DNA from: an uncultured Gammaproteobacteria bacterium
GTDB taxonomy: Bacteria > Pseudomonadota > Gammaproteobacteria > UBA9214
NCBI GenBank assembly: GCA_963773065.1
Contig: CAVYZN010000006.1
Coordinates: 32,001-96,000 of the forward strand
Length of the DNA stretch: 64,000 nucleotides
Reading direction: 5' to 3'
Part shown: positions 33,026-50,575 of the stretch, piece by piece
Layout of the letters: each line of letters opens with the position of its first letter
How positions within the stretch are numbered: the first letter of the stretch is position 1
Program-made: the position numbers and the translations under genes
The notes under the pieces: model-generated
The model's database searches: none
What the model was told of the DNA's origin: nothing
What the model saw: only the letters and a program-made list of their open reading frames with translations

Positions 33026-34785
33026 CTAGGGTTCATCCTCCGCCGGCTGGTCATCGCCGAGGTCGAGATAACCCTCGCGCAGCAGGTACAGCATGATCAC
33101 CTGCGCGGCCTGCATCGGGCTTTTATTGGCGGTGTCGATGCGTATCTCCGGTTTCTCCGGCACTTCGTAGGGGTCGCTGATGCCGGTGAACTCGGGGATG
33201 ATGCCCTTGCGCGCTTTCGCGTACAGTCCCTTCCGGTCACGGCTCTCGCACACTTCGAGCGAGGTGGCGACATGAATCTCGATGAAGGCGCCGTGCTGCT
33301 CGATCAGCTCGCGCACCTCGCGGCGCATGGCGGTGTAGGGGGCGATCGGCGCGCACAGCGCGATGCCGCCGTTTTTCGTGATCTCGCTGGCCACAAAACC
33401 GATGCGGCGCACGTTGATATTGCGATGCTCCCTGGAAAAGCCCAGCTCGCTGGAGAGGTTGATGCGCACCACGTCGCCATCCAGCAGGGTAACCGGGCGT
33501 TTGCCGTCTTCGATGAACTTGGCATACATGATCTTGGCCAGGGTCGATTTGCCGGAACCCGACAGGCCGGTAAAAAACAGCGTGAGGCCTTTCCTGCTGC
33601 GCGGCGGATAGACCTTGCGCAACTGGGTAATCACCTCGGGATAGGAATACCACGCGGGGACTTCGAGATTGTGCTCCAGGCAATGTTTGAGATCCCGGTC
33701 GCTAAACTGCACGCCTGCCTTGCGCTGCGCGACGAGCTCATCCCAGGTCACGAACGCCTCCCGCTCGGGCGAGTAACTGCGCTCGCGGATCGGCACCATG
33801 CGGATGGCGAGTTCATGCTGGTATTTCTCCATCATTTCCTGGGCCGCATAGCGCGGATAGAAACGTTCTCCCTCCTGGCCCATGCTGCGGGGAGCCGCAT
33901 GTCCCGGACCGACGATCATGTGCGAGCAGCCGTAGTTCTGCCGGATGACCGCGTTCAGCAGCACTTCGCGCGGCCCCGCCATGCGCACCGCGGCGGGCAG
34001 CAGCGAGAGGATGGCCATGTTGTGCGGATAGTGATGTCGGATGGCCTGGTAACAATGCACCCTGGCGTAGTAGTGCAGATCACCCGGCTTGGTCATGCCG
34101 ACGGCAGGGTGCAGCAGGATATTGGCCTGTGCCTCGATGGCGGCCTGCAGGGTGATCTCACGGTGCAGGCGGTGCATGGGTTTGGAGGTGTGGAATCCGA
34201 CGACGTTCTGCCAGCCCATCTTGATGAACAGGCGCCGCAGTTCCTCGGGGGTATGGCGCAAGATCTCGAAATCAAAATGGGCGGGCATCTGTATGCCTTC
34301 GAGTGACGCCTCCAAGGTAGATGTCATGGACCTGTTCAAAGAGATAACGGACTCCCGGATGTTCCACACTGGTCGTGCCATAAATCTCCCCCGCCTCGCG
34401 CTTCTTGTCCGGCTGCCACTTGTCCTCCACGGTAAGCACCGCCAGCATGAATCCCTCGACGTCGCGCAGCGCCACCTTGCCGCCAGGTTCGATCTTTTCC
34501 GCCTGCTTGGCCGGCACGTCCAGTGTTATGGGGATGGACCACAGGTTGCCGTCCGGGAAGGTGCAGATTATCGATGACGGATTCATACGCCGCACGCCCC
34601 ATGAAGCCGCGCAGCGGCGAGAGACCGCCATTGAGCAGCAACTCAAGGTCGCACTCCTGGCGCCGGTTGAGCGTGATGGAGGCATAGTCACCGGACTCGG
34701 CCTTTATCGCCTCCGCCCGATCCGGATCGACCAGTAAATTACACAATTCACCGCCATGCGGTGCAATCAGATGTTCCATCGTCAT
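33026..34785 (-). CDS. cysC: Bifunctional-type ATP sulfurylase/APS kinase (frameshifts near 34560 and 34310); sulfurylase motifs degenerate
   Basis: N-terminus LIAPHGG, DLELLLNGGLSPLRGFM; C-terminus FTGLSGSGKST, LLDGD.VR, RRIGFVA, RDRKGLY.KAR.G.I.EFTGISDPYE.P. Confidence 0.9.
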
Positions 34786-34943
34786 TGTTCCATTTCCTCG
34801 GTGCGCAAGCCCCGGCTCTCAATTTTTCAGAGCGCCATGAAAACTTTGGTTACATCGTAGTTTCACCGACCTTGGGTTAAGTAGTGTAGCGACGGACCCA
34901 ACAGAATCAAAGCCTTGAAAAGTATTCCCGGGTATTTCAAATC

Positions 34944-35901
34944 TCAATAATTATCCGCCGCGCCCGTGTATCCCGGCCAGCCGGGAGTTCTGCGCAGCCC
35001 CTCCTCCAGCAGAACCCGCGGCCGCCAGCCGATTGCGGCCTGCAGCGCCGTGTGGTCACAGACCCAGTCCCTATGGCGCAGCTCGCGCAGTTTCTCCGGA
35101 GTGAGCATGGGGGCATAACCGAACAGGCGGCTTGCCCGGCGATTCAGATGCGCCGGGATATCGAGCGCCCAGGCGGGTATGCGCAGCAGCGTGTACCGGG
35201 TGCCGGCACACTCGCGCAACGGTAGCCGCGATCTCGGGCCAGTCATAACCCCCCTCCCGTCCGTCATCGAGAGTATAAACACCGTTAGCGGCATGCCCGC
35301 ATTGTATCCAGGTAATAACGGCAGCCGCCAGATCATCGACAAACAGCAGGGAGAAGCGCGCATCGCGTGCACCGGGAACCGGTGCGATGCCTCTGGCCAT
35401 GGCGCGGAACAGCGGTAACAGCTCCCTGTCACCGGGCCCATAGACGGCGGGCGGCCGCAGGGCGATCCAGGCTACCCGGCGTGCTTCGTTGATCAGCACC
35501 TGTTCGCCCCTGAACTTGCTGGCGGCATAAAACGACAGCTGCGGTTCGCGCGCGGCCAGGGACGACAGGGATAGCAGACGGGGCGGCGTGTCCTGGGACT
35601 CCAGGACCAGCAGCAGCCGCATCACACCTTCGACATTGACACGGTCAAATTGATCCTGCGTCGCGCCGCGGACCGCGCCTGCGCAGTGCACCACGACGTC
35701 CGCACCCAGGATCAGGGATTCGAGGGACGCCGTATCCTCAAGACTGCCAAACACCAGGTCGAAATCGCCGGCCTGCAAGGGTCCTGCCTTTTTCATCGAG
35801 CGAACCAGCGCGCGCACCCGGTAGCCTGCCGCGATGAGCTGCCTGGCGATGGTTTGACCGATAAATCCCGTCGCGCCGGTGATGGCAACTGTCTGTGTCA
35901 T
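34944..35901 (-). CDS. NAD-dependent epimerase/reductase, CerR-like (frameshift near 35200)
   Basis: VAITGATGFIG, HCAGAVRG, LSSLAAREPQLSFYAASK..GE, LRPPAVYGPGDRE, MLTPEKLREL.H.DWV; directly downstream of the acyl-AMP ligase, as in sphingolipid clusters. Confidence 0.75.
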
Positions 35902-36060
35902 GGGGGCAGCATCGCCATGCGTGGTAATTGGCCTCGGGTCCGCGCGGCGCGATTGCGGCAACAGGCCGCTTTTCCGTGTGCTTCCGTGGTTGATGACCGG
36001 GTCAAAAAAATAACCGGCCTGGGCCGGTTATTGTTGGATATCAACACGCCCTGCTCTTTG

Positions 36061-37849
36061 TCAGGCAGATTGCTGTTTCAGCACAACGCCCATATCCGCG
36101 AGTTTAGGCACGGGCAACTTGAGTCGCACCGGGTCATGGCGTTCAATGAACTGCTGGCGCGCCTTGGAGCGTGACAGCTTGCCGGAGGAGGTGCGCGGCA
36201 GGGTGTGGGACGGCACCAGTTCGATATAGGTGTCGATACCCAGTTCAAGGTGAACCAGCCGGCTCAGGCGATTGACCAGGCTGGTGCGCCGATCGAGATC
36301 GGAATCACGACACTGTACCACCAGCACACACAGCTCTTCGTACTTCCGGACCCGGCACCGAGAACGCCAGCGCATCGCCGATGTTGACTTCCGGCTGCTG
36401 TTCGGCCAAGTACTCGAGATCCTGCGGCCAGATATTGCGGCCATTGATGATAATGCTGTCCTTCTTGCGGCCGGTGATAATCAGCTTGCCATCCACGCTG
36501 TAACCGATGTCACCGGTATTGAGCCAGCCATCCCCGGACAATGCCGCGGCCGTTTCTTCGGGCGCATTGAAATAGCCCGACATGACGCTGGGACCGCGGA
36601 CAAAGATGGTTCCGCTGCGACGGTCCGGCAATACCGCCCCGTCATCGTTGCGGATTTCAACTTCATATTCCGGTAATGGCTTGCCGCATTCCACAAAGCA
36701 ACGGGGCCGTCCGGGATTCTCCAGCGCATGGATCGGCAGCGCTTCCTGGCAATTCGAATGGTGATCGCCGTCGACGCAATCCGTGGTGTGACCCTGGAAC
36801 AGCGGCGCAAAGCTGACCGCCAGCGAGCATTCCGCCATGCCGTAACAGGCGAGAAAAGCCTTGTCATTGAAACCGGCAGGCGCCAGTGCCTCGGCAAAAC
36901 GCACCAGTGTTTCCGAGCGGATCATTTCCGCGCCAACACCTGCCACACGCCAGTTGCTGAGGTCATACTTGCCGGCTTCGCCAGGACGCAGGCGGCGCGT
37001 GCACAGCTCGTAGCCGAAGGGCGGGCTGAACGAGATGGTCGCCTTGGTCAGGGTCATCAGGTTAAGCCACTGACGCGGCCGCATGGCGAACTCACGGGTA
37101 TCCAGGTAATCGACCGACGTTTGCGCCGCCACTGGAACCAGCACCAGTCCCACGAGACCCATGTCATGGTAGAACGGCAGCCAGGAGAAACAGCGGTCGC
37201 CGGGGCCCATCTTGACGCCATGGCGGATAATGCCGGCCAGGTTACTCATGACCGAACGCTGTTCAATAACAACACCACGCGGGAAACGGGTACTGCCCGA
37301 GGTGTATTGGATATAAGCGATGTCACCCGGTTCGGACGGCTGAAATTCGATGGCCATCTCGGGAAGGTCGTCGAAGGCCTGGGGATCACCGATCAGGCGC
37401 AGGCCCAACCCCTGCCCCGCTTCCTCGAGGAAGGACAGGTAGCCGGTTGGGGCCATGGCAATCTCGGCCTGGCTGCTTTCCAGCAAGCCACGCAACTGGG
37501 TCACAAACGTGGCATGCCCGCCCAGCTTGATGGAGGCCGGTAGCGCCACGGGCACCAGGCCACCGTATTGACAGGCAAAAAAGAACCGCAGGAAGTCCGG
37601 ATTGGTTTCGGCAACCAGTGCGACACGGTCGCCTTTCTGCAAACCCATACCGAGCAGCTTGCGCGCCAGCAGCCGAGCCTCTGTACGCAGTTGCGTGTAG
37701 GGTAACGCAGCATAGAGCTCGCCCCTGCCCGTGTAGAAATTCGCGCCGGTATTACCCTGCGCCGCATAATCCAGGGCAGCGGTAAGCGTTGCGAAATCAG
37801 CGGCACGAAACGGCAGGTCGTGCAAAGTTGGTGTCGATTCTGTCAGCAA
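36061..37849 (-). CDS. Fatty acyl-AMP ligase / acyl-ACP synthetase (frameshift near 36350)
   Basis: AYIQYTSGSTRFPRGV, SWLPFYHDMGLVG, CYGMAE, WLNTGDIG, ITGRKKD.IIINGRNIWPQDLE, LPRTSSGKLSR. Confidence 0.88.
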
Positions 37850-38274
37850 AACAGATTCTTCCCTTGTCGGATATTAATAACCAGTGGCCCTGTTCTGTAC
37901 TGCTGCTGGCATGAGCCGAATTAAACGCGTTAATTTACCGTATTTGCCGATCTATCTTTGAATTTGTTGCAGATAAATCTCGTCTGAATTCGTTACCCTG
38001 AATGCCCGCGCCAGTTAGCCAAAAACGTAGCAGAAACACAACGCTAGTAACCAATTCAGCCACAACCCGGTATATAAGCAGGCGCTATGATGCCTAAAAA
38101 ACACGTAAAACACAAGACCTTTTTAATGTTTCTCAACCTTGAGCATGAAAATTCCCTATTGTTGCTAATCAACAACAATAATGACTTATCAGGTCAGAAA
38201 TGCATGCTGATCATGTTGAAATACAACCACACGGTTACTTCCGAGTCGCCAAAGCTCAAACTGCCAGTTGAGAG

Positions 38275-38289
38275 GCAGGAATTATGCCA
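38275..38289 (-). promoter_or_regulatory. Possible sigma-54 -24/-12 element in the divergent intergenic region
   Basis: Minus strand TGGCAT-AATTC-CTGC (GG-N10-GC); motif match only. Confidence 0.25.
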
Positions 38290-38559
38290 GCTACAGTATT
38301 CCAGTCAAATCCACGCTTTTTTTCATGTTTGGTGGCTTCCGATATGACAGTTACGCACCAGCCCAGTGCATCCCACCGCCGGGAGCACCACAATTGCACA
38401 TTAATGAAACCGGTTTTCCTGCTCATCCCCAGGTAAACGGGCATGGGATCGCAATCCTGGAATCATCAAGCGTCACAAGGGATTTCACCGGTACCGTTGT
38501 GGCGTGCTTCCTGTATGATCATTCACGCTCATGATTAATGAGAAACAGTATCCGCCTTA

Positions 38560-39702
38560 ATGGACACCCCAAGCACCACAGGAATTCATCTCGAAGCGGT
38601 ATCCGGCCGCAGGCAATTGGATGAGTTTATTGGGCTTCCCTGGACGATTTACCGGAGCGATCCAAACTGGGTGCCCCCGCTGTTATTCGAGCAGAAACAA
38701 CGCCTGACTGCCCATAACCCCTTCTTCAAACATGCCCGCTGGCAGGCCTGGACCGCCCGGTACAACGGCCGCCTCGTCGGGCGCATCAGCGCCCAGATCG
38801 ATCGGCTCTACCATGACCGGCACGGCCAGAAGGTCGGTTATTTCGGCATGCTGGAAGCCGAAGACAATACTGAACTGTTCGCCACCCTTCTGCGTACCGC
38901 TGAAAAGTGGCTGCGTGATCAGGGCATGCAGCGGGTAAGCGGCCCATTCAACCTGTCGATCAACGAGGAATGCGGACTGCTGACCGATGGCTTCGATACG
39001 CCGCCCTATATCATGATGGGTCACGCACGACCCTACTATGCTCGGCAGGTCGAGGCGGCCGGCTACGCCAAGGCCAAGGATTTACTGGCCTACCACATCG
39101 CCGCGGACTTCGAAGCGCCGCATATCATGACTCGGCTGGCTGAAAAGGCGGCACGCCGGGTCAGTGTGCGCGGATTACGGCGCAAACAACTCAGGCAGGA
39201 ACTGGAGATCCTGCGCGACATCTTCAACGACGCCTGGTTCAACAATTGGAGTTTCGTGCCCTTTACCGAGGCCGAATTCGCGGATATCGGCGAAATGCTG
39301 ACACTGCTCGTCGATGACGACTTCGTGCAGATCGCCGAGATCAACGACCGCCCGGTGGCGATGATCGTCGCTTTGCCAAACATCAACGAGATCATCCGGG
39401 ATCTGAATGGACGTCTGCTGCCATTCGGCTGGCTCAAGCTGCTGTGGCGCCTGAAGGTCCGCTATCCGACCACGGCGCGCGTCCCACTGATGGGCGTTCG
39501 CCGGGAATACCAGCACACCCCGCTGGGCCCGGCACTGGCCTTCATGGTCATCGACGCCGTCCGCCAGGGAGTGATCCGGCGCGGCATCCGCGCCGTCGAA
39601 TTATCCTGGATACTTGAAGACAATGACGGCATGCGCAACATCATTGAAACCATCGGTGGCAGCGTCTACAAGCGTTACCGCATCTATGAAAAAGACCTCT
39701 GA
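38560..39702 (+). CDS. GNAT-fold N-acyltransferase, bacterial ceramide synthase (bCerS)-like
   Basis: FI.LPW.IY..DPNWVPPL, GRISAQID, GPFNLSINEECGLL.DGF, MMGH..PYY, IFNDAW..NW.FVP, LPNINE, GRLLPFGW, ELSWILEDN..M. Confidence 0.8.
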   Translation: MDTPSTTGIHLEAVSGRRQLDEFIGLPWTIYRSDPNWVPPLLFEQKQRLTAHNPFFKHARWQAWTARYNGRLVGRISAQIDRLYHDRHGQKVGYFGMLEAEDNTELFATLLRTAEKWLRDQGMQRVSGPFNLSINEECGLLTDGFDTPPYIMMGHARPYYARQVEAAGYAKAKDLLAYHIAADFEAPHIMTRLAEKAARRVSVRGLRRKQLRQELEILRDIFNDAWFNNWSFVPFTEAEFADIGEMLTLLVDDDFVQIAEINDRPVAMIVALPNINEIIRDLNGRLLPFGWLKLLWRLKVRYPTTARVPLMGVRREYQHTPLGPALAFMVIDAVRQGVIRRGIRAVELSWILEDNDGMRNIIETIGGSVYKRYRIYEKDL

Positions 39703-39709
39703 CTGAACC

Positions 39710-40523
39710 ATGCCAGACAAGGACCGGCAAAAATCCTATACCGCGATTGTTCTGGCCGGCGAACGCAGCCCCGGAGACCCGCTGGTGGAACACGCCAGCG
39801 CCTGCTGCAAGGCCATGGTCGAGATTGACGGTACCCCGATGATTCTCAGGGTATTGGCGGCCCTCGACAGCGCCACGCATGTCGACAAGTGCATCCTCTC
39901 CGGTCCGATGCATGACCAAATGGCGGCCGAATCCCCCGTCACCCTGCTGATCGAAGCGGGAATCGTCGATTGGTGCGAACCCCGGCCGACGCCCAGCACC
40001 AGCGCCTACAGCAGCGATGCAGCGCATCCCCGACGACATACCCGTGCTGGTGACCACCGCCGACCACCCCTTGCTCACCGCCGAAATCGTCGACCGCTTC
40101 TGTGGCCAGAGCCTGACGCGCGGCGTCGATGCGACAGTGGGGCTGGCGCCTTATGAACTGGTGAAAGCGGCGTTTCCGGACATGAAAAAAACGGTCCTGC
40201 GATTCAGGGACGGGGAGTATTGCGGCTGCAACCTGTTTGCCTTCCTGACCACGGAGGGCCGGCGCATGGCCGATTACTGGCGCCGGGTGGAAACACAGCG
40301 CAAGAATCCGATCAAGATCATCCGGATACTCGGCTGGGGCGCCGTGATCAAGTACCTGCTGGGTTGGCTGACACTGCACGGCGCGATCGAAACCCTGTCA
40401 CGGCGTCTGCATCTCAACCTCGGTGCGGTGATCCTGCCTTACGCTGAAGCGGCGATCGATATCGATTCGGTTGCCGACCACGCTATCGTGTCGGAGAAAC
40501 TCTCGCGGCACCCGAAGCCGTAG
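39710..40523 (+). CDS. MobA-like nucleotidyltransferase (frameshift near 40010)
   Basis: AIVLAG.R...DPL, KAMVEI.G.PM, VLVTTADHPLLT, YCGCNLFAF, RKNP, AAIDIDS..D. Confidence 0.8.
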
Positions 40524-40570
40524 GGTTTGCCGTATGCACGCGCGCATAATGGCCACGTAAAACACGGAAA
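40520..40570. repeat. Degenerate GTAG REP plus left-arm copy ATGGCCACG..AACACGGAAA
   Basis: GTAGGGTTTGCCGTATGCAC followed by AATGGCCACGTAAAACACGGAAA, resembling 29185-29207. Confidence 0.45.
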
Positions 40571-40598
40571 TAATTAAAAAGGACAACGAAGTAATGCC

Positions 40599-41576
40599 TC
40601 ATCGGACAGGAGGGGATGGGCGGGAATATTGGCCGCCTGGAGGAAGCCGGCGAGCGATCTCCACACGGCTCACCGTTTCAGCGACAAACATAGCCTTTTC
40701 GGCTGAATAACCGCGCACCTCAAGCTCAATCTGCCATACTGCGCCTGACTCGCGCACCCGGTAGATGTGGTACTGCGCCGCATGGCCTGTTCTAAGTCCG
40801 ATGGATGATGCCGAAGGAATGCCGAACACCGGCACATGCGTGCCGGGGATCTCGATCCGGCTCTGCACCGAACGGTGCCGGTGTCCGTGCAACACCAGTT
40901 CCGCGCCCTGCCTGGCGATCACGGCGCATAACTGTGCCGCATCCGTCAGCCGCTTGCGCCATTTTTCTTCGCCGGGGACCGGCGGATGATGCAGCAATAC
41001 CACCCGGAACAGGCCTTGCCGCCCGGTCTGTTCCAGCAGCGCATCCAGTCTTTGCAACTGGCTGGCGCCGAGACGGCCCGTTGCCAGCAGCGGCGGGGAG
41101 GGCCGCGCGCTGGACAGTCCGATGAAGGCTACGGGGCCGCGCACACGCAGGGCGGGAAAGACGGTCTCGGCCGTATCCGCCCGCACCCCGCCGAGCGCTT
41201 CATCCGCTACCAGGTAGGGCTCCCAAAGCGATAATCCGAGCGTCCAGGGAACAGACACATAGGCATCATGGTTACCCGGCACGACCGTCACCGCGCGCGG
41301 ACTGCCGAGCGATTCCAGCCAGGTCCGCGCCTGGCGAAATTCATCGGGCAGCGCGATATGGGTGAGGTCGCCGGTGATCACCAAGTGCTCGGGACGGGTC
41401 TGGCCAAGGTCCCGCCGCAGGGCCTCCAGCACCTCGCCGCGGTGTTCGGCCCGGCGCCGCCGGCGCCAGGACAGGTAACCCAGCAGGCGTTTGTTGGCCA
41501 GCTCCCGCCACCTAACCCCGTCCAGCGTAGACAGGTGAGGATCGGATAATTGAGCAAATGTCAGTGTATTCTCCAT
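40599..41576 (-). CDS. Metallophosphoesterase (calcineurin-like)
   Basis: SDPH, ITGDLT, VPGNHD, LHHPP, LHGHRH. Confidence 0.9.
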   Translation of the reverse strand: MENTLTFAQLSDPHLSTLDGVRWRELANKRLLGYLSWRRRRRAEHRGEVLEALRRDLGQTRPEHLVITGDLTHIALPDEFRQARTWLESLGSPRAVTVVPGNHDAYVSVPWTLGLSLWEPYLVADEALGGVRADTAETVFPALRVRGPVAFIGLSSARPSPPLLATGRLGASQLQRLDALLEQTGRQGLFRVVLLHHPPVPGEEKWRKRLTDAAQLCAVIARQGAELVLHGHRHRSVQSRIEIPGTHVPVFGIPSASSIGLRTGHAAQYHIYRVRESGAVWQIELEVRGYSAEKAMFVAETVSRVEIARRLPPGGQYSRPSPPVR

Positions 41577-41624
41577 CGCTTGATAATCTGCTCGTTTGCT
41601 TGCCGTTGCCTGGGCGGTAAACTC

Positions 41625-42672
41625 ATGTCAGACGACTACCTCATGAACAGCACCGAGCCTGCCACCCGAACACCCGACACCGCCGCCGCTGACCTGTCAT
41701 GCAAGGACGGACGTTCAATCGGCCTGATCAGCAACCCCAACAGCGGGCGCAACCGCAAACAACTGCAGGCCATTGAGCGCATTGTCGCAAATCATCCCCG
41801 GATTCACCATTACCCTACCCCCGCCCTGGATGATCTTCCCGTGGCCATGACCGCGCTGGCGAATCAACCCGTAGGGATATTGGCCATCAACGGCGGCGAC
41901 GGCACCGTGGCCCGGGTGCTCACCCACCTGCTGGAGCATGCTCCGTTTGAGCGGCTGCCGCTGATCGCCCTGCTGCCCGGCGGCACCACCAACATGACTG
42001 CGGGCGACGTTGGCCTGCGCGGCAGCCTGCCCGGGGCGGTAGCGCGACTTTGCCGCTGGGCCGACGACAGCGGCGATGAGCACCGCTTGCTGCGCCGTCC
42101 GATCTTGCGGGTAGAGACGGGTGCCGGGCAGCCCGCGGCGTGCGGCATGTTTTTCGGCACCGGCGCGATCATCCATGGCATCGACTACTGCCGGGCCAGC
42201 ATACACACGAAAGGGGTCAGCAACGAAATCGGCCCGGGCCTGGCCATGGCCAGGACGTTTTGGGGCATCATGCGGCGCGACCGGCGTTTTGCCCGGCCGG
42301 TAGCCGTATCCGTGGCGCTCGACGCCGCGCCGCCGGCGCCGGCGCAAGACATGCTCATTCTGCTTGTCAGCAGCCTGGAGAGGCTGTTCCTTGGCATGCG
42401 GCCCTATTGGGGAGAGGAGAATGGACCACTGCACGTCAGCATGATCCGCGCCGGCGCGGACCGCCTGCTCCGCACTCTGCCCGCGCTGCTGCGCGGCAAG
42501 CCGGGCCGCCATGCCGGCGTGACTGCGCGGGTATCAAAGCCACAACGTCGAGCGCGTCCGCCTGATGCTGGACGGACCCTACACGCTCGACGGCGAAATC
42601 TACCAGGCCAGCCGCGCCACGGGGCCGGTGACGATCACCAATGGTGGTACCGTTACCTTCGTCCGCGTGTAA
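41625..42672 (+). CDS. Diacylglycerol/sphingosine kinase-family protein, CpgB (ceramide kinase)-like (frameshift near 42525)
   Basis: ISNPNSGRN, AINGGDGTV, LPGGTTNMTA.D.G; the shifted frame continues PYTLDGEIY...TFVRV* ending at 42672. Confidence 0.82.
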
Positions 42673-42719
42673 ACGGCATTCGTGTCACCAGAAGCCGCAG
42701 TCAATCATTTAATGCAGCA

Positions 42720-43671
42720 ATGAATCATCCCGGCGCAGCAACAACCCCCGTCACCCACCCCGCGCCGCCGGATTCACCGGCGCTGCGCGCCCTGGTTGAT
42801 GCCCTGCTCCAGCGCCATGGCGATGCGGTCAACGCAATCCTGTTTTACGGCTCCTGCCTGCGCAGCGGCGATCTCTTCGACGGCCTGGTTGACCTCTATC
42901 TGATCGTCGACGGCTACACGGCCTTCTACCCGCGCAAGACCCGGGCGCTGGCCAACTGGCTGCTGCCGCCCAATGTGTTTTATACCGAGATCGAGCGTGA
43001 CGGGACGGGTGGTGCGCGCCAAGTACGCCGTGCTCTCGAGCGCCGACCTGCGCAACGGCACCTCGCGGCGCTGGTTTCACTCCTACCTGTGGGGCCGTTT
43101 CACCCAACCCACCGCCCTGGCGTGGTGCCGTGATGAGGCCGCCCGCCGCCAGGTCAATGCGAGCCTGGCGAACGCCCGGCGCACCTTTCTGGAACGGGTG
43201 CTGCCGCGGTTGCCCGCCGCCGGCCGGGTGTGCGATCTCTGGCGGCTGGGCCTGCAATTGAGCTATGGAGCGGAACTGCGGGCGGAATCCACGGGGCGCC
43301 CGGGTGAACTGACGGAGGCGGCACTGGACTACTATGCCGCGGCGACCCGTGAAGCCGCCGCGTCGCTGCGTTACCCGCTGACCCTTGAGGGTGACGGCGC
43401 CGCCATGCGCTATCATGCCGCAGTGCCGGCTCTCAGCCGCGGGCTGAGCCGGCCCGGCTGGGCGCTGCGCACCGCGCAGGGCAAGCTGCTGTCGGTCTTG
43501 CGCCTGCTCAAGGCCCTGTTCACCTTCGAAGGCGGGCTCGATTACCTCGCCTGGAAACTGGAGCGCCATTCCGGGCAGCGGGTTGAAATTCCCTCCCGCG
43601 TGCGGCGCTATCCGCTGATCTTTATCTGGGGTCTTTTCTACCGTCTCTACCGGCGTGGTATATTTCGCTGA
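42720..43671 (+). CDS. CpgC-like nucleotidyltransferase-fold protein (frameshift near 43000)
   Basis: AILFYGSCLR...DGLVDLYLIVD.Y, LLPPNVFY, RAKYAV, LWGRFTQP, LRLLKA.FTFEGGLDYLAWK.ERHSG; follows the lipid kinase. Confidence 0.68.
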
Positions 43672-43690
43672 TTTTTCTGTTCAACGCAAC

Positions 43691-43761
43691 TCACCGCAGT
43701 GACGCAGAGAATTCAAGGAAATAGATGTCCTTTGAAATTCTTCTCTGCGTCTTTGCGGTGA
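43691..43761. repeat. Intergenic inverted repeat
   Basis: TCACCGCAGTGACGCAGAGAA ... TTCTCTGCGTCTTTGCGGTGA. Confidence 0.7.
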
Positions 43762-44022
43762 AATTCTTCTTTGAAAAACAGATTTCAGCCATTCTGGCAA
43801 GGAAGGATCGATGAGTATCACAGAGCGCCTTCGCAAGGCCCGCCGGAAAATCACCTGGAAGAGCGGCAAGTCATGATTCATGGCATGAGCCGCCTGATTG
43901 CCAGGCAGTCACTGATCGGCGCCAACCGGTGTTCGATAAAACGATAGTCCTTCCCTAAGTACCGCGGAGCAGACGAGACCAAATGTACACAATCCCCGAA
44001 ACCCGTCACACATGCCGGAGAA

Positions 44023-44948
44023 ATGCCCACGATACGCAAAAAGAAACGCGAGATGTCTCGTTTCGCTGCTGTTCTTCCTGTCCCGCAAGCAGAAACTCGC
44101 CCTCGATCACTGGCTGCGCGGCCGCAAGGAATACAAGGAAGTCCGCAAGAGCGGACTACGTCATCGTCTCACCGCCCAAATGCGGGCGCACCTGGTTGCG
44201 CCTGATGCTGTCCCGTTTCTTCCAGATTCGCTACGGGCTGCCCGAGGGTGAGTTGCTGGGCTACGACAATTACCACAAAATGAATCCGGCCATACCCCGG
44301 ATACGTTTCACGCACGACCGCTACATCCGGGACTACACGAAAAACCGTGATTCCAAGCGCGACTTTTATCACAAGAACGTGATTCTGCTGGTGCGTGACC
44401 CGCGCGATGTGGCGGTCTCGAACTATTTCCAATGGATCAATACCGTCAACCCCTACAAGAAGCAGTTGCTGAATCTCCCCGAGCATCCGGAGGATGTCCC
44501 GCTATTTGAATATGCGATGACGCGCCAATTCGGCATACCACGCACCGTTGACTTTCTCAATGCCTGGGCAGGCGAACTCGAAAAGATCCGGAACACATCT
44601 GCTGATCCGTTACGAGGACATGCGCGCGGAACCGGCACGCTTACTCGGGAACATTCTGGACTTCATGGGCATTCAGGCATCCGCGCAAGAGATCGACCAG
44701 GTAGTGGATCAGAGACCTCCTTCGAGAACATGAAAAAGCTCGAGCAGGATCAGACGATCACATCGGGCAGCCGCCGCCTGATGGTAAAGGATCCGAACAA
44801 CCCGGATGCCTACAAGGTGCGGCGCGGCAAGGTCGGCGGCTATACGGACTACTTCAGCGATCGGGAAATCAGGGACATCGACCGGCTCATCGCGACGCTG
44901 CCACCCGTGTACGGCTATGCACCCGATGCCGGGCCGGTACACGAATAG
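44023..44948 (+). CDS. PAPS-dependent sulfotransferase 1 (frameshifted)
   Basis: DYVIVSPPKCGRTWL (5'-PSB), LVRDPRDVAVSNYF (3'-PB), RYEDMRAEP, SFENMK, KVRRGKVGGY. Confidence 0.88.
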
Positions 44949-44982
44949 CAATGCCGGGGCGACCGCCGATGAGTTGCAGCAG

Positions 44983-45836
44983 ATGGCCATGAAATTTCTC
45001 CAATCATTCCGGACCTGGCGCCACAAACGGCGCTGGGCGCGCCGGAATATCTATCAACAGCGCAATGCCGATGCCATCGTGGTATCGCACACCAAGAGTG
45101 GCCGCACCTGGCTGCGCATCATGATTTCCTACCTCTATCATCTTGAATATGGCACACCCGCCACCGAGATCATCGCTTTTGACAACCTGCATGCGCTGAA
45201 TCCGGCCATCCCGCGCCTCTATTTTAACCGTGACACCAGGGTACCGACCTTCGCGCAGGGTAGAACTTTTAGTACAGATGGCGAATGACATGAAGGTATT
45301 GTTTCTGGTGCGTGACCCGCGTGATGTCGCCGTGTCATTCTATTTCCACGTCATCAATCGCGCATCCGACCGGGAGTTGATCCGTAAGGGAATACCGCCG
45401 CAAGCGAGATCATTATCGCTGTATGATTTCGTGGTCGATCGCGATCTGGGCATTCCCCGTATCGTCAGTCACTTCAATCGCTGGCACGACGAAATGCAAA
45501 CCATGCCGCATACCATGGTTATGAAGTATGAAGACATGCGCGCCGAACCCGTAACCACACTGGGTCAGGCCATGCGCTTTCTTGACCGCGATTTCAGTCA
45601 CGAAAACCTGGCAAAGGCGGTGGAATTCGCCTCATTCGACAACCTTGCGCGCAAGGAGAAAAGCGGGTTTTTCCAATCCGGCCGCATGCGTCCGATCAAC
45701 CCGCGGTGACACCGGCTCCTTCAAGGTCCGGCGGGGCAAGGTCGGCGGTTACCGGGATTACTTTACGGCGCAACAGAATGAGACCATCGACGCCCTGGTA
45801 CGGGAGCAGTTGCATCCCTGCTATGGATATACCTGA
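44983..45836 (+). CDS. PAPS-dependent sulfotransferase 2 (frameshifted), paralog of the upstream gene
   Basis: DAIVVSHTKSGRTWL, LVRDPRDVAVSFYF, KYEDMRAEP, ASFDNL, KVRRGKVGGY. Confidence 0.88.
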
Positions 45837-45875
45837 GCTTAGACACCGCGCGCTCGTATACTGACCCTCACAGGT

Positions 45876-45987
45876 AGTGCCACGGTCCGGTCGGCTTGCC
45901 GAAACACGCCGGTATACGTCCCTGTAGGCTCGTGTGCCGCCGTCCTGGCGGCACACGTTTTCGGCAAGCCGACCGGACCGTGGCACT
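45876..45987. repeat. Nested perfect palindrome (29 bp outer stem, 11 bp inner stem)
   Basis: AGTGCCACGGTCCGGTCGGCTTGCCGAAA / TTTCGGCAAGCCGACCGGACCGTGGCACT; inner CGTGTGCCGCC-GTCCT-GGCGGCACACG. Confidence 0.85.
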
Positions 45988-46130
45988 CCAGCGCGGCCAA
46001 TGAAGACCGTGGCATGAGACACATGAGACCCTGCCGCCTGTGCATCCGTGAGCCATGGGCCATGTTGACGGGCTGACGGACTAGCCCCTATAGTTTCCGC
46101 GACTTCCTTACCTGGCATGTTCCTTACCCC

Positions 46131-47846
46131 ATGCGTCTACTCCTGACTCTGCTGAGGGCTTACCCCTGGCGGACCGCTTTCGCCCTGGTTTCCATACTCT
46201 TCGCGGGTATCGCCGATGGTGTAAGCATCTCCGCCCTGTTGCCCTTGCTCAATCTCGTTACCCGCGGGAATTACAGGGAAGGCTGCCGCGATACTCACTG
46301 CATCGCCAGGCAGGCACCCGTGTCGAGGCAATGATCCTCAACGGGCTGTCATACCTCGGCCTGGAAGCCACACTTGGGGTATTGCTCGTCCTCGTCGTAT
46401 TGGCCGTTCTTGTGAAAAGCATGCTCTTGCTCCTGGCCAATAACCACGTAGGCTATTCCGCGGCCCACATCACCACCGAACTGCGCCTCGCCCTGTTACG
46501 GGCCGTGCTCGCCACAAGCTGGGAGTATTTCCTGCATCAACCGATTGGAAAGCTCGCCAACTCCATGGCCACCGAGGCAAACCGCTCCGCGCAGTCGTAC
46601 ATATTCGGCGTCACCATGCTGGCAATGCTGTTCCAGGCACTGGTGTACATGGCAATTGCACTGGCCGTCTCCTGGAAGGCGACGCTGACCGCACTGGGGA
46701 TCGGACTCGTCATACTCGCTGTCTCCACATCTGCTGGTGAGAATGTCCAGGAGCGCCGGAAATCGCCAGACCAAAGTCTATAAATCATTGATTTCCCGCC
46801 TGACGGATACCTGCAGTCGGTCAAGTCACTCAAGGCAATGGCGCGGGAGGACCTGGCGGATACCGTGTTGAGCGCGGAAACGGCGAAGTTGAACCGGCCC
46901 TGCAAACGATGTGTTCAGCCGGGAATTACTGGATGCCGTCCAGAGCCCCTTGACTGCCATGGTCATCGCAATGGGTATCTACTCGCGCTGCACATATGGG
47001 CATGCCTTCGCCGCGGTTCTGGTGCTGGTGATACTCCTGGCCCGCGTGCTCGGACAAATGGGCAAGGTACAAAAACAGTATCAGAAGCTGGTCACCAACG
47101 AGAGCGCCTTCTGGTCTTACGTCACGCCATCAACATGCCGAGCAGGCCCGGGAGGTCGGCACGGGAACCGAAAGCCGAAGCTCGAGTCGGGCATCAGGTT
47201 CGGAACGGTATCCTTCGCCTATGGCGAGAAGACGGTATTGCAGAAGGTGTCGATGAGGATACCGGCCAAGTCCCTGACGACGATTATCGGGTCCTCCGGC
47301 GCCGGCAAGACCACCCTGGTCGATCTGGTGATCGGGCTCTACCAGCCCGATGGCGGGACGGTATATCTGGACGACATGCCATTGACGTCGGATCGATCTC
47401 AAGCTATGGCGGCAAAAAATAGGCTATGTACCCCAGGAACAGCTCCTGCTTCACGACAGTATCCTGACCAATGTCACCTTCGGCGATCCGCAACTCACCG
47501 AAGCGGACGCGGAGTATGCCTTGAGGGCGGCGGGACGCCTGGGAATTCGTCAGCGAACTACCGGATGGCATGCAGAGCAACGTGGGAGAACGCGGCGCCA
47601 AACTTTCCGGCGGACAACGGCAGCGCATCATGATCGCCCGCGCCCTGGCGCACCGGCCATCGGTGTTGATACTGGATGAACCGACGAGCGCGCTGGATCC
47701 GGCACAGCGAGTCGATCATCAGCGATACCTTGCGCCAATTACGCGACAATTACACGATACTCGCCATCTCTCATCAGCCGGCGCTGGCAAAATCGGCCGA
47801 TGTGATATACCGGCTGCAGGATGGTCAATTGCATCAGACTTCGTGA
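46131..47846 (+). CDS. ABC transporter permease/ATP-binding protein, MsbA-like (multiple frameshifts)
   Basis: N-terminal TM pieces; [11 protein letters not shown] (Walker A), [42 protein letters not shown]. Confidence 0.85.
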
Positions 47847-47849
47847 GTG

Positions 47850-48114
47850 CGGCCCATCCGGCGAACACTGCCGGCAAAAAGCCATGGCCGTGAGCTGCTT
47901 CGCCACCCTGTGATGTGAGTCGCGCGATAGCAGGACATTTCGCACCCATGCCGAAGCAAAGATGGCGATCCTCGAGTTCATCGAGGTATGGTACAAACCA
48001 CATCGGCGGCATTCATCCCTTGATTATCAATCACGGATCAACTATGAAAGATGACACCAAACCGGCGGCCTTGGGAACAAGTACTAACCTTTCCACTGAA
48101 ACGGGTCAAGCCCA
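47850..48114 (+). mobile_element. IS3-family remnant (integrase C-terminus and right end)
   Basis: FATL..., RTFRTHAEAKMAILEFIEVWY..HRRHSSLDYQS.INYE; terminus TCCACTGAAACGGGTCAAGCCCA. Confidence 0.75.
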
Positions 48115-48337
48115 CCCGGCAGAGCCGGGGGGTTTACCTAACGGAAATTACCGGGAGTAAATTTGGACAGCCGGAGGCTAGCGCCGAGAGGGCGAGACAC
48201 ATCGAAGGGCCGAGCAATCAACTGCCGACACGGGGATATTCAGTCCTGGGCAGGCCATCCATTGGCTATCTTTACGCAACAACTTACCATGACACTCTTT
48301 GCTTGGTTTAAATCACAATTGAGGCGCCGCCAGCTTC

Positions 48338-49276
48338 TCAAATATAGCCCAGTTTACCGAGATCGACATCAAAGTCTTCCGCGAGATGCCGGTTGGACTC
48401 ACTGTACAATGACACAATACTCGTCCTTTGCCGGCTATCCAGTTCAAAACTGAATTTCCTGAACGGTACTCGCTTCAAAACAATCCGCAGCCACCTTGGA
48501 AAACTCGCGATCTTCCAATTGTGCCGATGCAGTTTGTCGAGCAAGTACTCGTTGGCCGTAATGTGATACCCACTGCCCGAAAACGATCGAGGTTTGGTAT
48601 TGAATGATCCTCTGGCAAGGCACTGCTGCGACCTGTGTGCGTCAATACCGAGATACTCCGACAATCGCTGTGTAAATCGATCACGGTCGCCGACAAATTC
48701 CTCGAATGTGAACAGGGTGACCATCTCCTTCCCGAATAGTGTTCTGTAGAAGGCAGCGACCTCGTTGTAAAACAGTGTGGCGAAATAACCCTCTCGCGGG
48801 TGCTCAAGTGAGGCATCAACGAAGCGACGAAAGTCATCAGGAACACGGGAAACTGAGTCAAAAAAGTACGACGGAATAATATCGACCTGCCGTCTGATCG
48901 TGAGCATGACGCAAACATCATAATCGGCGCTGACGGGCTCAGCGAATACTTGTCGGATGCGTTCTGCGGTGCGCCCGATATCATGATCACCATAGCGGGT
49001 GGGGCGCAGAAAGTCCTCATGTGAAAGCATCATGTTACGGCCATTCTCCTGCTTTGCCACGAGACCGGCGAAAGTTTCCTGTAACTGAGGCAGCGCTCGC
49101 TCGAATTGCACCGAGTCTAGTTTCAGTATCTGCTTTTCGAGAGCCAGTAGATCACCGGTAAGCGGCTTGCCCAGATAGCAAAGATCGGGGTGTCGCTTAA
49201 AAAGCTGCTTTTGCAACGTGGTGGTTGCCGTCTTCGGATAGCCGACATGCAGGAAAAATTTCTTGCGGGTTTCCAT
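48338..49276 (-). CDS. Sulfotransferase-family protein 3
   Basis: FLHVGYPKTATTTLQ, LSHEDF, TIRRQ.D...SY, FTFEEF, YSESN..LA. Confidence 0.78.
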   Translation of the reverse strand: METRKKFFLHVGYPKTATTTLQKQLFKRHPDLCYLGKPLTGDLLALEKQILKLDSVQFERALPQLQETFAGLVAKQENGRNMMLSHEDFLRPTRYGDHDIGRTAERIRQVFAEPVSADYDVCVMLTIRRQVDIIPSYFFDSVSRVPDDFRRFVDASLEHPREGYFATLFYNEVAAFYRTLFGKEMVTLFTFEEFVGDRDRFTQRLSEYLGIDAHRSQQCLARGSFNTKPRSFSGSGYHITANEYLLDKLHRHNWKIASFPRWLRIVLKRVPFRKFSFELDSRQRTSIVSLYSESNRHLAEDFDVDLGKLGYI

Positions 49277-49559
49277 GCCCGGTTAGCCTATTGCAACGTG
49301 ATGACAGCCGTGATCAAAGGGATCCATGCCGTTTGAATCGACGAAGGTTGGCAATGTGTGCGAAAAAAGTGAACATCTTCGTAAATTCCAGCGCGTTTTC
49401 AAGCCGGGGGGCAGATTAAACCTGAACTACCAAGTATATGGCAGGGATTAGACAATAATCAGACAGCCGCAGCAAGCCCACTGCAGATGCTCTCGAACCG
49501 CTCGCGTACCATGATATTCTTGCCCACATCGAGTACGACACCACCATTTATAACTCCAC

Positions 49560-49700
49560 GTCATTGACCTTGCCGGCCTGCAGCCAGGTGCGCCTGCACC
49601 CGGGACAGGAGACGATCAGCCAATCGGTACGCCGGAACTTGTACGAGCGACTGGCCTTTCTGCGTGACTTGAGCGGCACAAGTTCTCGATAAGACGCTGC
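49560..49700 (-). pseudogene. Collapsed sulfotransferase remnant
   Basis: Manual translation RRTDWLIVSCPGCRRTWLQAGKVN: a degenerate 5'-PSB motif joined to a GKV-like C-terminal motif. Confidence 0.4.
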
Positions 49701-49762
49701 GGGCAGGTCTTCAGGTTTCAGGGGCAGGCCACCGCGGGTACGGGAAGCCGGTATACGCGGTA

Positions 49763-50575
49763 TCAGGAAAACACCGGTACTCTGGACGCCAGCTGGAATG
49801 TGGCGCGGTCCAGACGCGGCATTTCGTTAAGGTAAGTGGTATCACGCCTCAGTACCACATTGTTTTCTGAACGCAGCTTGCGGTTCCCGCGAATCATGTG
49901 AGACACCCGTTCGAAGGGTTGACCACTGCCGAGCCGCTCCCCGATGGCGTCGAAGTCCAGCCCCAGGCACTCACCCACTGGGCGCAACGCCGCATGCGGG
50001 TTGCTGCAGATATCCTCGTAACTGACACGCACGGCTTTTGCGCCGAGTTGCTCCTCCAGTCGGGAATACTGCCTGACCTGCCACACCCAGTGACGCGAAA
50101 CCGCGGCGACCCGACGTAACCGCTTCCAGCGGGACGTCCCCAGAACTCCGATCCGGAGATCCTTACGGATCCGGGAATACACAACAGCCCGGCCATCCCT
50201 GACAACATGGACCAAGTACAGGTCGATGCCGTCGATGGACTGCAGCAGTTGCGCATAGCCCACGTTGTGGGTGACATCGCCGATAAACGGCCTGCCTGAC
50301 ATGACGCTTATCAATTCGTACAGTCGCGGCAACTTTTCGCTGTCAGGCCAGTCCTGGACCGGCTTGTACCGGTGACGTATTTCCAGCCAGAAGGGACAGT
50401 CAGCGGCCGGGACGCCGCAGGAACAGACATTGGCCGCTCCAAACATGACGCCGTGCGGAAATTCACGCAGCTTTCCGGTAGAGAAAATATCCGGGTGCTG
50501 GCCAAGCATCATATTGAAGATAGTCGTACCGCCATGTGCGGCACCGGCAATCAAGACAACTTTGTGTTTGGACAT
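49763..50575 (-). CDS. Sulfotransferase-family protein 4
   Basis: LIAGAAHGGTT...MMLGQHP, CSCG....DCPFW, HVVRDGRAV..S, VSYEDI..NP, H.IRGN. Confidence 0.8.
   Translation of the reverse strand: MSKHKVVLIAGAAHGGTTIFNMMLGQHPDIFSTGKLREFPHGVMFGAANVCSCGVPAADCPFWLEIRHRYKPVQDWPDSEKLPRLYELISVMSGRPFIGDVTHNVGYAQLLQSIDGIDLYLVHVVRDGRAVVYSRIRKDLRIGVLGTSRWKRLRRVAAVSRHWVWQVRQYSRLEEQLGAKAVRVSYEDICSNPHAALRPVGECLGLDFDAIGERLGSGQPFERVSHMIRGNRKLRSENNVVLRRDTTYLNEMPRLDRATFQLASRVPVFS

Follow-up and report, generated by a model that had tools for sequence, protein, structure and literature searches.

What kind of molecule would be made by a gene cluster in which genes for ceramide synthesis stand among genes for activating and transferring sulfate? 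The question is raised by a 64,000-nucleotide stretch of DNA from an uncultured gammaproteobacterium of the lineage UBA9214 (contig CAVYZN010000006.1, positions 32,001 to 96,000; hereafter the window). In this stretch, genes for a bifunctional ATP sulfurylase/adenosine 5'-phosphosulfate (APS) kinase (Sat/CysC), a short-chain dehydrogenase/reductase (SDR) and a fatty acyl-AMP ligase (FAAL) run in one direction, and genes for a GNAT-fold acyltransferase, a lipid kinase, a Tam41-like nucleotidyltransferase, two sulfotransferases (ST1 and ST2) and an ABC exporter run in the other, followed by two more sulfotransferases (ST4 and ST3; Table 1).

Sphingolipid synthesis in bacteria has been worked out only recently, and to our knowledge the phosphoglycerate pathway of Caulobacter is the anionic headgroup route known so far. 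The original prediction, made from the letters of the window, was that this organism may produce a sulfated sphingolipid. The presence of a serine palmitoyltransferase gene (spt) in the genome and the recurring linkage of lipid and sulfation genes elsewhere support that proposal, and from this genomic evidence we consider it probable that a sphingolipid locus is split here, with its larger part in the window, and that it yields a sphingolipid decorated with sulfate. Gene content, family and fold assignments, and a mixed gene order conserved across families are what was observed in the analysis.

Ceramide synthesis genes

The Caulobacter crescentus locus CC_1152-CC_1168, as set out in passages of the published accounts, encodes Spt, an acyl carrier protein (ACP), the reductase CerR, an acyl-ACP synthetase and the ceramide synthase bCerS, together with the CpgA-D/CC_1158 pathway to ceramide diphosphoglycerate and LptC2/F2/G2 (PMC9393093, PMC11324152, PMC12275187, 10.64898/2026.04.12.717747). 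A sphingolipid origin for the window's locus depends on there being an spt gene in the genome (G000), and one is present outside the window on the same contig (C6), 18.7 kb beyond the window end. Among the 17 matches to PF00155 across the whole genome, its product (G000:C6:114739-116028) scores 452.6 bits (E 8.4e-135) to the Sphingomonas SPT 2x8u versus 231.5 bits to the KBL 1fc4. Directly upstream lies a gene for a PP-binding ACP (PF00550, G000:C6:114615-114809), as it does in the related genomes G010 and G020; two ELM1-family (PF06258) genes and a second GT8-like glycosyltransferase gene are also found just upstream of spt, and a phosphopantetheinyl transferase (PPTase) gene is found 1.5 kb downstream. 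The corresponding ACP-Spt-PPTase/ELM1 unit of G010 is 1.1 Mb away from its GNAT cluster.

Within the window, Pfam and NCBIfam matches confirmed the acyl-AMP ligase, the reductase and the gene for synthesis of 3'-phosphoadenosine 5'-phosphosulfate (PAPS) on the minus strand, as had been proposed. The FAAL, which matches NF006624, is predicted to load ACP and would correspond to the acyl-ACP synthetase used in ceramide synthesis. The G010 orthologue of the SDR matches complex I NDUFA9 subunits in the PDB (E 3.5e-12), and CerR is described as homologous to NDUFA9 in the part of the source available (PMC11087976). Among 41 genomes of relatives, 13 keep the GNAT gene beside FAAL/SDR. An even class sample of 300 genomes (the present one and 299 others; thresholds E<=1e-20 for GNAT and E<=1e-25 for ST1) has it in 16 of the 299. 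The GNAT matches no NCBIfam model, and for the kinase, the Tam41-like protein and the sulfotransferases NCBIfam likewise offers none that is specific. All five Caulobacter ceramide functions thus appear to be represented, with bCerS assigned from fold, weak Pfam evidence and gene context.

An EPSP-synthase-family gene is located directly beside spt (G000:C6:115851-117329) in four genomes of different families (G000, G164, G041 and G043). It was considered as a pathway enzyme using phosphoenolpyruvate and rejected: since it is one of just two PF00275 genes in G164, G041 and G043, it is taken to be a housekeeping gene, aroA or murA, in stable linkage with spt. Three PF00275 genes are present in G000. 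Elsewhere in G000, two near-identical copies of an aminotransferase gene stand 4 kb apart (G000:C28:9041-11072 and 13968-15140), one of them split over two frames, which may reflect duplication or an assembly artefact.

Linkage of sulfation genes and sphingolipid genes

Sulfotransferases of this kind could follow wzx/wzy clusters or sphingolipid genes from genome to genome, and the original prediction required the latter. G010, four further families and 31 of 39 full-length related loci side with the sphingolipid genes. On a single contig of G010, genes for UDP-glucose dehydrogenase, Sat/CysC, SDR and FAAL are followed by the divergent series GNAT, nucleotidyltransferase, (metallophosphoesterase), kinase, Tam41-like protein, LpxO-like hydroxylase and two sulfotransferases. 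Flavocytochrome c sulfide dehydrogenase (FCSD) and bc1 complex genes flank this series downstream, while upstream are the UDP-glucose dehydrogenase, sulfatase and outer-membrane protein genes. Here Sat/CysC and the sulfotransferases bracket only lipid genes, and no glycosyltransferase or wzx/wzy gene is adjacent.

The complete genome G164, from another family, carries on one contig the block SDR, FAAL, then GNAT, nucleotidyltransferase, metallophosphoesterase, DAGK-type kinase, Tam41-like protein, ELM1, sulfotransferase, ST4-like sulfotransferase, sulfotransferase, GT8, GT8, GT4, Wzy_C, ELM1, LptF, LptG, ABC exporter, ELM1 and Spt. The homologue of ST4 within it was found at E 2e-33, and the GT4 enzyme of the block is 40% identical (E 2e-72) to the third GT4 of the window (56327-57601). 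In G164, G169, G151, G206 and G315, which represent four further families, sulfotransferases have GNAT, Spt, the ABC exporter and LptF/G paralogues as neighbours, lying next to them or between them, and in G169 Sat/CysC is next to FAAL. The Halieaceae genomes G041, G042 and G043 have GNAT (56-58% identity) and Spt (65-66%) about 10-25 kb from sulfotransferase/ELM1 genes.

To survey related loci more broadly, the Tam41-like gene (a 9-sequence alignment) was used as the anchor, and the best 80 of 577 relatives in species genomes were taken; all counts out of 80 given here refer to these loci, 39 of which are full length, extending 10 kb to either side. The names represented include Thiohalobacter, Thiogranum, Halieaceae, Halioglobus, Haliea, Woeseiaceae and Porticoccus. 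By tblastn, 31 of the 39 full-length loci contain a gene of the ST1 family no more than 10 kb away, and 48 of all 80 contain one within the fetched DNA. An unbiased census of adjacent open reading frame (ORF) families in the 80 loci gave ELM1 in 56, the kinase in 54, sulfotransferases in 44 (94 genes), the GT8-like family in 39 (82 genes), GT2 in 28, the nucleotidyltransferase and Wzy_C in 27 each, GNAT in 25, the 2-oxoglutarate (2OG) oxygenase in 19 and LptF/G in 15.

In the class sample, ST1 was found in 7 of the 299 other genomes and together with GNAT in 4, where 0.4 would be expected (Fisher one-sided p 1.8e-4, a value inflated by relatedness, as kin are not independent). In all four genomes carrying both, the two genes are 1-11 kb apart, and in a fifth genome, G151, a sulfotransferase is matched strongly at a distance of 3.5 kb from Spt. 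Within the family sample, ST1 occurs in three genera that all carry GNAT (g1, g2 and g3), and is absent from g4-g6 and from 16 other families. Because it recurs in other genera and families, the mixed gene arrangement is more than chance.

The linkage bears directly on a competing explanation, already named in the original prediction, in which the sulfation genes act on exopolysaccharide (EPS) or lipopolysaccharide (LPS). The sulfotransferases, ELM1/GT8/GT4 glycosyltransferases and Wzy_C would then decorate LPS core, O-antigen or exopolysaccharide, and would be near sphingolipid genes merely because genes for outer-membrane lipids cluster. The window does hold three GT4 genes, Wzy_C, rmlABCD and UDP-glucose dehydrogenase, with an exosortase EPS locus close by; an ELM1-sulfotransferase pair of G010 adjoins a Lip_A_acyltrans gene, and such genes occur in 4 of the 80 loci and within the G169 block. 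The ELM1 family also includes an Acinetobacter outer-core glycosyltransferase. Against this stand the bracketing of lipid genes in G010 described above, the position of the sulfotransferases of G164, G151, G169 and G315 between ceramide genes at both ends of one block, the resemblance of ST1 to cytosolic sulfotransferases for lipophilic alcohols and not to carbohydrate sulfotransferases, and the restriction of the ST1 family, in the family sample, to GNAT-carrying genera. Linkage to sphingolipid genes has therefore weakened the EPS/LPS explanation, which we regard as unlikely while still allowing it some weight.

Sulfotransferases, PAPS supply and hydroxylases

The two paralogous sulfotransferases on the plus strand both match Sulfotransfer_1, and the two more that had been proposed beyond the exporter are real, ST3 being recognized by PF13469 and ST4 by its homologues and fold. 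By sequence and fold the four are assigned to the PAPS-dependent sulfotransferases, a group marked by a 5'-phosphosulfate loop (PKxGTT-like), a 3'-phosphate motif and the sulfotransferase fold, and this activity is predicted for them. In ST1 of G010 the motifs PKSGRTW and RDPRDVVVS are kept and align to SULT2A1; its nearest PDB entries are cytosolic sulfotransferases (SULTs) for hydroxysteroids and bile salts (SULT2A1) and plant SOTs (E about 1e-15). ST1 would accordingly belong to the cytosolic SULT type, a type acting on small lipophilic alcohols. The sole PDB sequence match of ST3 is a polyketide synthase sulfotransferase domain (4gox, E 1e-4). ST4 gives no significant BLASTP match to ST3, and its identity was settled by homologues and fold: 11 of 20 aligned homologues match PF00685, an invariant HxG(Y)PKTAxxTxQ motif and an R..S pair are present, and the best PDB fold matches listed for its model (pLDDT 84) are all sulfotransferases.

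The minus-strand gene called an APS kinase in the original prediction does carry that domain; it is not a kinase alone, being a bifunctional enzyme with ATP sulfurylase. It is the only match to PF01583 (APS kinase) in G000, and the same is true of its counterpart in G010. In G164, G041 and G043 the single APS kinase is located elsewhere in the genome. The sulfotransferases in the window are flanked by the Tam41-like gene and the ABC exporter, both of which are core members of the locus in genomes without sulfotransferases.

Hydroxylases repeatedly adjoin the sulfotransferases, as the 2OG oxygenase does in the window and the LpxO-like gene does in G010, and a sulfotransferase/2OG oxygenase/sulfotransferase module is also found in G010. 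It is possible that the 2OG oxygenase is a hydroxylase that creates the site of sulfation. A hydroxylated acyl chain is no less plausible than a sugar as the target of sulfation. Sulfatase genes were also observed near the locus in 5 of the 80 related loci and in G010 (L028:4256-11511), there alongside genes for a DUF1254/DUF1214 protein and for outer-membrane proteins, FadL-like ones among them, which hints at turnover of sulfate esters.

A sulfate added by these enzymes might also be transient, serving as the leaving group for an elimination, as with the sulfotransferase domains of curacin and olefin synthases and with retinol dehydratase, so that the final lipid would be desaturated or deoxygenated. 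The polyketide synthase match of ST3, the curacin sulfotransferase domain among the fold matches of ST4 and retinol dehydratase among the PDB matches of ST1 all point in that direction, and the Black Sea lipidome, as described in the available part of its report, contains 1-deoxy ceramides together with sulfated ones (PMC11334938). These matches are weak, however, and the better ones are ordinary sulfotransferases; no thioesterase or decarboxylase partner was seen, and four sulfotransferases with a sulfatase near the locus, as in G010 and the 5 loci above, fit stable sulfate esters better. We therefore hold a transient sulfate to be improbable.

Kinase, Tam41-like protein and headgroup genes

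A 527-aa ORF that had been read as a lipid kinase proved not to be a single gene. It is made of two genes, kinase and Tam41-like, fused by frame breaks, whose counterparts in G010 are 338 aa and 316 aa. The recognition of a CpgC-like gene in the original prediction was borne out at the level of family and fold, by PF09139 in homologues and by matches to the Tam41 fold. According to passages of the Caulobacter study, CC_1161 (CpgC) carries a synthase domain for CDP-diacylglycerol (CDP-DAG), CC_1158 is a phosphoesterase and CC_1152 is a nucleotidyltransferase (PMC11324152).

The Tam41-like family is large, with 3837 matches at E<=0.001 among 7987 candidates, and 1213 representatives at 50% identity, of which 369 reach E<=1e-30. 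When four members were scored against Tam41_Mmp37 (PF09139), three exceeded the cut-off, with 27.7-31.9 bits, and P0001 itself scores 18.7 bits. For a model built from 24 sequences (pLDDT 87), the five best PDB matches by Foldseek are Tam41 CDP-DAG synthases; matches to 6ig2, 6ig4 and 7ecd have E values of 5.5e-9 to 4.2e-8 and TM scores of 0.49-0.59. Natural fusions join the Tam41-like domain to DAGK_cat (P0194, 662 aa) and to CDP-OH_P_transf (P0260, 757 aa), and the kinase and Tam41-like genes are adjacent, kinase first, in 78 of the 80 loci. Together, fold and fusions suggest a route from the kinase through CDP-ceramide to transfer onto a headgroup. The kinase has a DAGK_cat domain and gives only weak matches to PDB sequences (YegS, E 0.006). 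A 290-aa family without a Pfam match stands directly upstream of the kinase in 36 of the 80 loci, mostly of Halieaceae (for example L091:8122-8994); no homologue of it was found in the window's genome.

Three genes in this span were additional to those of the original prediction, encoding the GNAT, the nucleotidyltransferase of the NTP_transf_3 family and the metallophosphoesterase. The nearest PDB sequence to the nucleotidyltransferase is 2dpw, an uncharacterised nucleotidyltransferase, and one homologue also matches IspD and CTP_transf_3. The metallophosphoesterase occurs in 32 of the 80 related loci. No CpgA-type CDP-alcohol phosphatidyltransferase (PF01066) is encoded on contig C6 of G000 or near the loci of G010, G164, G041 and G169. 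The product is thus not simply ceramide diphosphoglycerate, and we have not filed the locus as the pathway to that lipid (CPG2).

Exporter and transport partners

The proposal of an MsbA-like ABC exporter held as to its ABC_membrane and ABC_tran domains, and did not extend to MsbA itself: against the MsbA equivalog model TIGR02203 the fragments score 22-56 bits versus a cut-off of 602, and HepA_fam similarly falls far below its cut-off. We would describe the protein as an MsbA-like type I ABC exporter, not as MsbA. Homologues adjoin Spt and LptF/G paralogues in G020, G023, G164, G169, G151 and G315, and this conserved place supports the exporter assignment. When LptF/G paralogues taken from related loci were used to search G000, just one LptF/LptG pair was found (G000:C11:270141-272285, 24-31% identity); a sphingolipid-specific LptF2/G2 pair was not found in this genome, which is 91% complete.

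Weighing the evidence

A number of observations weigh against a sulfated sphingolipid as the product. G020 and G023 carry FAAL-SDR-ACP-Spt-ABC and GNAT-nucleotidyltransferase...Tam41-like genes with no ST1-family match or nearby Sat/CysC; a sulfotransferase is missing from the surrounding 10 kb in 8 of the 39 full-length loci, and ST1 was not matched in 12 of the 16 class-sample genomes that are GNAT-positive. ST1-family paralogues are found elsewhere too, such as the G010 pair beside the homologue of lipid A late acyltransferases, and these genomes have many other sulfotransferases. In the window itself the GT4, Wzy_C and rml genes and the exosortase EPS locus lie close by. With no CpgA-type enzyme in or near the locus, a candidate for the step after CDP-ceramide is lacking, and PF09139 was matched in none of 14 control genomes, Caulobacter included. 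CerR of Caulobacter is reported, in the part of the source available, to be periplasmic, which complicates a purely cytoplasmic order of steps (PMC11087976). Finally, about 12 frame breaks hit this copy of the locus. Given that sulfotransferases are missing from some sphingolipid loci (sulfotransferase-free versions include that of the Woeseiaceae metagenome-assembled genome L078) and that paralogues occur elsewhere, sulfation looks like an optional decoration in a subset of these loci.

Gene inventory and frame breaks

Genes were called from an ORF listing with Pfam and NCBIfam scans of the window, and intact G010 proteins were mapped onto it (Table 1). The locus runs on past 50.6 kb with a GT8-like gene, three GT4 genes and a Wzy_C protein. 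The GT8 label is a lead only, as Glyco_transf_8 (PF01501) is found in just 10-11% of the members of the nearest Atlas clusters, and the protein has no match among PDB sequences. In the left flank (26.7-33 kb) are rmlABCD, UDP-glucose dehydrogenase and an epimerase; the dehydrogenase is a possible source of UDP-glucuronate and adjoins Sat/CysC in relatives too.

Table 1. Genes of the sulfation and sphingolipid locus and its flanks, in window coordinates (frame breaks are positions at which the reading frame of a gene is interrupted)
Gene product	Position	Strand	Evidence and remarks
UDP-glucose 6-dehydrogenase	27847..29148	-	three UDPG_MGDP_dh domains, all present; 80% identity to the G010 gene directly flanking Sat/CysC; one also in G001
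Bifunctional ATP sulfurylase/APS kinase (PAPS synthase)	33026..34785	-	PUA_2 + ATP-sulfurylase + APS_kinase; NF004040, 617.6 bits on larger fragment; 2 frame breaks (~34308, ~34557)
CerR-like NAD-dependent SDR reductase	34944..35961	-	Epimerase/3Beta_HSD/NmrA domains; 1 frame break; G010 orthologue intact, 67-73% identity
Fatty acyl-AMP ligase (FAAL)	36061..37855	-	PF00501; NF006624, 708.9 bits (cut-off 600); 86% identity to G010 gene; 1 frame break
GNAT-fold acyltransferase, candidate bCerS-like, 380 aa	38560..39702	+	Acetyltransf_1, 28.9 bits (cut-off 20.7); intact
MobA-like nucleotidyltransferase (CpgD/CC_1153-like)	39614..40523	+	NTP_transf_3, weak in window fragment, E 1.7e-13 in intact G010 gene; 1 frame break
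Metallophosphoesterase (CC_1158-like)	40599..41576	-	PF00149
DAGK_cat lipid kinase, CpgB-like ceramide kinase candidate	about 41550..42672	+	PF00781; frame break ~42520; G010 orthologue 338 aa, intact
Tam41-fold nucleotidyltransferase, CpgC-like	about 42630..43671	+	no Pfam match of its own; homologues PF09139; frame breaks ~42707, ~42996
Sulfotransferase ST1, cytosolic-SULT type	about 43943..44948	+	PF00685; 65% identity to intact G010 ST1; frame break ~44150
Sulfotransferase ST2, ST1 paralogue	about 44806..45836	+	PF00685 on two fragments; 2 frame breaks
MsbA/HepA-like half-size ABC exporter, candidate flippase	46131..47893	+	ABC_membrane + ABC_tran; frame breaks
Divergent sulfotransferase ST4	48338..49276	-	PF00685 of homologues, motif, fold model; own Pfam matches weak
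Sulfotransferase ST3 (Sulfotransfer_3 type)	49763..50584	-	PF13469, E 1e-11
2OG-Fe(II) oxygenase	50821..51624	+	PF13640; divergent from ST3
GT8-like glycosyltransferase ('unk314')	52497..53421	+	no Pfam match; 62-76% identity to the family present in 39/80 loci; 2 frame breaks
GT4 glycosyltransferases (three)	53862..55130, 55033..56387, 56327..57601	+, +, -	Glycos_transf_1 and Glyco_transf_4; frame break in the second
Wzy_C (O-antigen ligase/polymerase family) membrane protein	57788..59038	-	PF04932; 30% identity to the gene within the G164 block

Further to the left (1-26337) is an exosortase (EpsH)/DUF3485 EPS locus with GDP-mannose dehydratase, polyprenyl-phosphate sugar transferase, FkbM methyltransferase, GT4, asparagine synthase and beta-helix protein genes. 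Its G+C content is 0.44-0.59, mostly about 0.5, versus 0.53-0.64 in the sulfation locus, and a fragment of an ISL3 transposase is located at 9242-9712 within it.

Mapping of intact G010 proteins onto the window revealed the frame breaks of the 33-48 kb region, and further breaks affect rmlA, rmlD, the GT8-like gene and one GT4 gene. Such a number might indicate that the locus is decaying in this genome, in which case the breaks would be real and no such lipid would be produced. Each fragment is still 60-86% identical to intact G010 genes, however, with no internal stops in the aligned pieces, and the breaks are scattered evenly over unrelated genes, which is the pattern of consensus indel errors. 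In contigs from four metagenome runs, independent of each other and 90-99% alike, exactly one base is missing at each of 42707, 42996 and 44150, and dropping one base at these positions unites the flanking frames. Two of them, 42996 and 44150, are the breaks already mapped in the Tam41-like gene and ST1; 42707 falls in a stretch left unaligned, immediately ahead of the point where the alignment of the Tam41-like gene starts. Since one base is absent from these contigs at the predicted breaks, we read the breaks as consensus errors or strain-specific lesions, and decay of the locus as highly improbable.

Contigs of related populations also differ from the window in other ways. In three runs the ST2-ABC spacer (45850-46056) is exchanged for 10-114 other letters, and one contig joins 44143 to 45092, which would fuse ST1 and ST2 into one gene.

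Proposed route and implications

Under the sulfated-sphingolipid reading, each enzymatic step, the sulfate acceptor and the topology are proposed from homology and gene context. The acyl-AMP ligase would load a fatty acid onto the dedicated ACP encoded beside Spt, with the PPTase nearby, and Spt would condense the acyl-ACP with serine. The GNAT would then N-acylate the Spt product, and the NDUFA9-like SDR would reduce the N-acylated product to ceramide. The DAGK-type kinase could convert ceramide to ceramide-1-phosphate, from which the Tam41-fold enzyme, using CTP, could form CDP-ceramide. A headgroup might be built with the help of the second nucleotidyltransferase, the phosphoesterase, the GT8-like and GT4 enzymes and, near Spt, the ELM1-family glycosyltransferases. 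The four predicted cytoplasmic PAPS-dependent sulfotransferases would add sulfate esters to hydroxyls of the headgroup and/or to hydroxyls introduced by the neighbouring 2OG oxygenase, with PAPS coming from the adjacent Sat/CysC, the genome's only APS kinase. The MsbA-like exporter may flip the finished lipid, and in relatives the LptF/G paralogues of the same block may carry it to the outer membrane. In view of the glycosyltransferases and the Wzy_C protein in the locus, the product is probably a sulfated glyco/phospho-sphingolipid.

A more speculative possibility is that the product is an LPS-like molecule on a sphingolipid anchor. Ceramide phosphate, converted to CDP-ceramide by the Tam41-like enzyme, would be extended by GT8-like, ELM1 and GT4 enzymes at the cytoplasmic side of the membrane. 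Up to four sulfotransferases would then poly-sulfate it, a dedicated MsbA-like exporter would flip it, Wzy_C might lengthen it further, and LptF/G paralogues specific to it would bring it to the outer membrane, giving a common and unrecognised surface polyanion of abundant marine and sediment Gammaproteobacteria. We put this forward tentatively, as less likely than not to hold in full. If it is true, the carriers would be Halieaceae, relatives of Thiogranum and Thiohalobacter, and Porticoccus, and the lipid could partly stand in for phosphate-rich LPS.

A sulfated product would define a second family of anionic bacterial sphingolipids and would provide the first candidate genes for the sulfated sphingolipids of marine lipidomes. 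It would also indicate a role for the CpgC-type enzyme, for which the Tam41 fold and the fusions to a kinase and a CDP-alcohol transferase argue for a CDP-ceramide intermediate. The carriers belong to groups that abound in coastal water and sediment, and in those settings an exchange of phosphate for sulfate in the lipids of the cell surface may affect phosphorus economy and recognition by phages or grazers. They include cultured, non-pathogenic strains, so that the prediction can be tested directly; Pseudohaliea rubra DSM 19751, Litorirhabdus singularis IMCC14734 and Halieaceae bacterium WMMBA7 are cultured carriers.

Comparison with known systems

The locus resembles that of Caulobacter in its ceramide enzyme families, which are the same. 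It likewise has a DAGK/LCB5-type kinase with a CDP-DAG-synthase-like protein after it, and both a nucleotidyltransferase and a phosphoesterase; in its relatives LptF/G paralogues stand inside the block. It differs in the lack of a CpgA-type enzyme in or near the locus and in having one nucleotidyltransferase only, and also in its four sulfotransferases, Sat/CysC, 2OG oxygenase, GT8-like/ELM1/GT4 glycosyltransferases, Wzy_C and MsbA-like ABC exporter. The searched passages of the Caulobacter papers do not mention sulfation, and full-text literature searches, whose coverage leaves out most subscription journals, found no bacterial pathway joining sulfotransferases to sphingolipid genes.

The sulfation of rhizobial LPS and Nod factors and the synthesis of mycobacterial sulfolipid-1 depend on PAPS-dependent sulfotransferases that act on envelope glycoconjugates. 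As in those systems, cytoplasmic PAPS-dependent sulfotransferases would here act on a lipid-linked or glycolipid acceptor before export. The acceptors of the rhizobial and mycobacterial enzymes are, in contrast, LPS, a chito-oligosaccharide and trehalose lipids, and the full-text searches found no report of such a system embedded in a sphingolipid gene cluster.

In the report that comes closest to such a pathway, lipidomics of the Black Sea water column found sulfate-1-deoxyceramides and sulfono-1-deoxyceramides; in the part of the report available no genes are assigned to them, correlation links the lipids chiefly to anaerobes (Desulfobacterota, Bacteroidota and others), and they are 1-deoxy forms with the sulfate placed on the fatty acyl chain (PMC11334938). 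The word 'sulfotransferase' is absent from the main text of that report. The product proposed here is likewise a bacterial sphingolipid with a sulfur oxyanion group, in this case predicted from genes.

In animals, sulfatide is made by a ceramide galactosyltransferase and then a PAPS-dependent cerebroside sulfotransferase. The proposed bacterial route would follow the same logic, from ceramide through glycosylation and PAPS-dependent O-sulfation to an anionic glycosphingolipid at the cell surface. The enzymes, however, are unrelated, ST1 being closest to cytosolic SULTs, and the bacterial route would probably proceed via ceramide phosphate and CDP-ceramide, with export by an ABC flippase and Lpt-like proteins.

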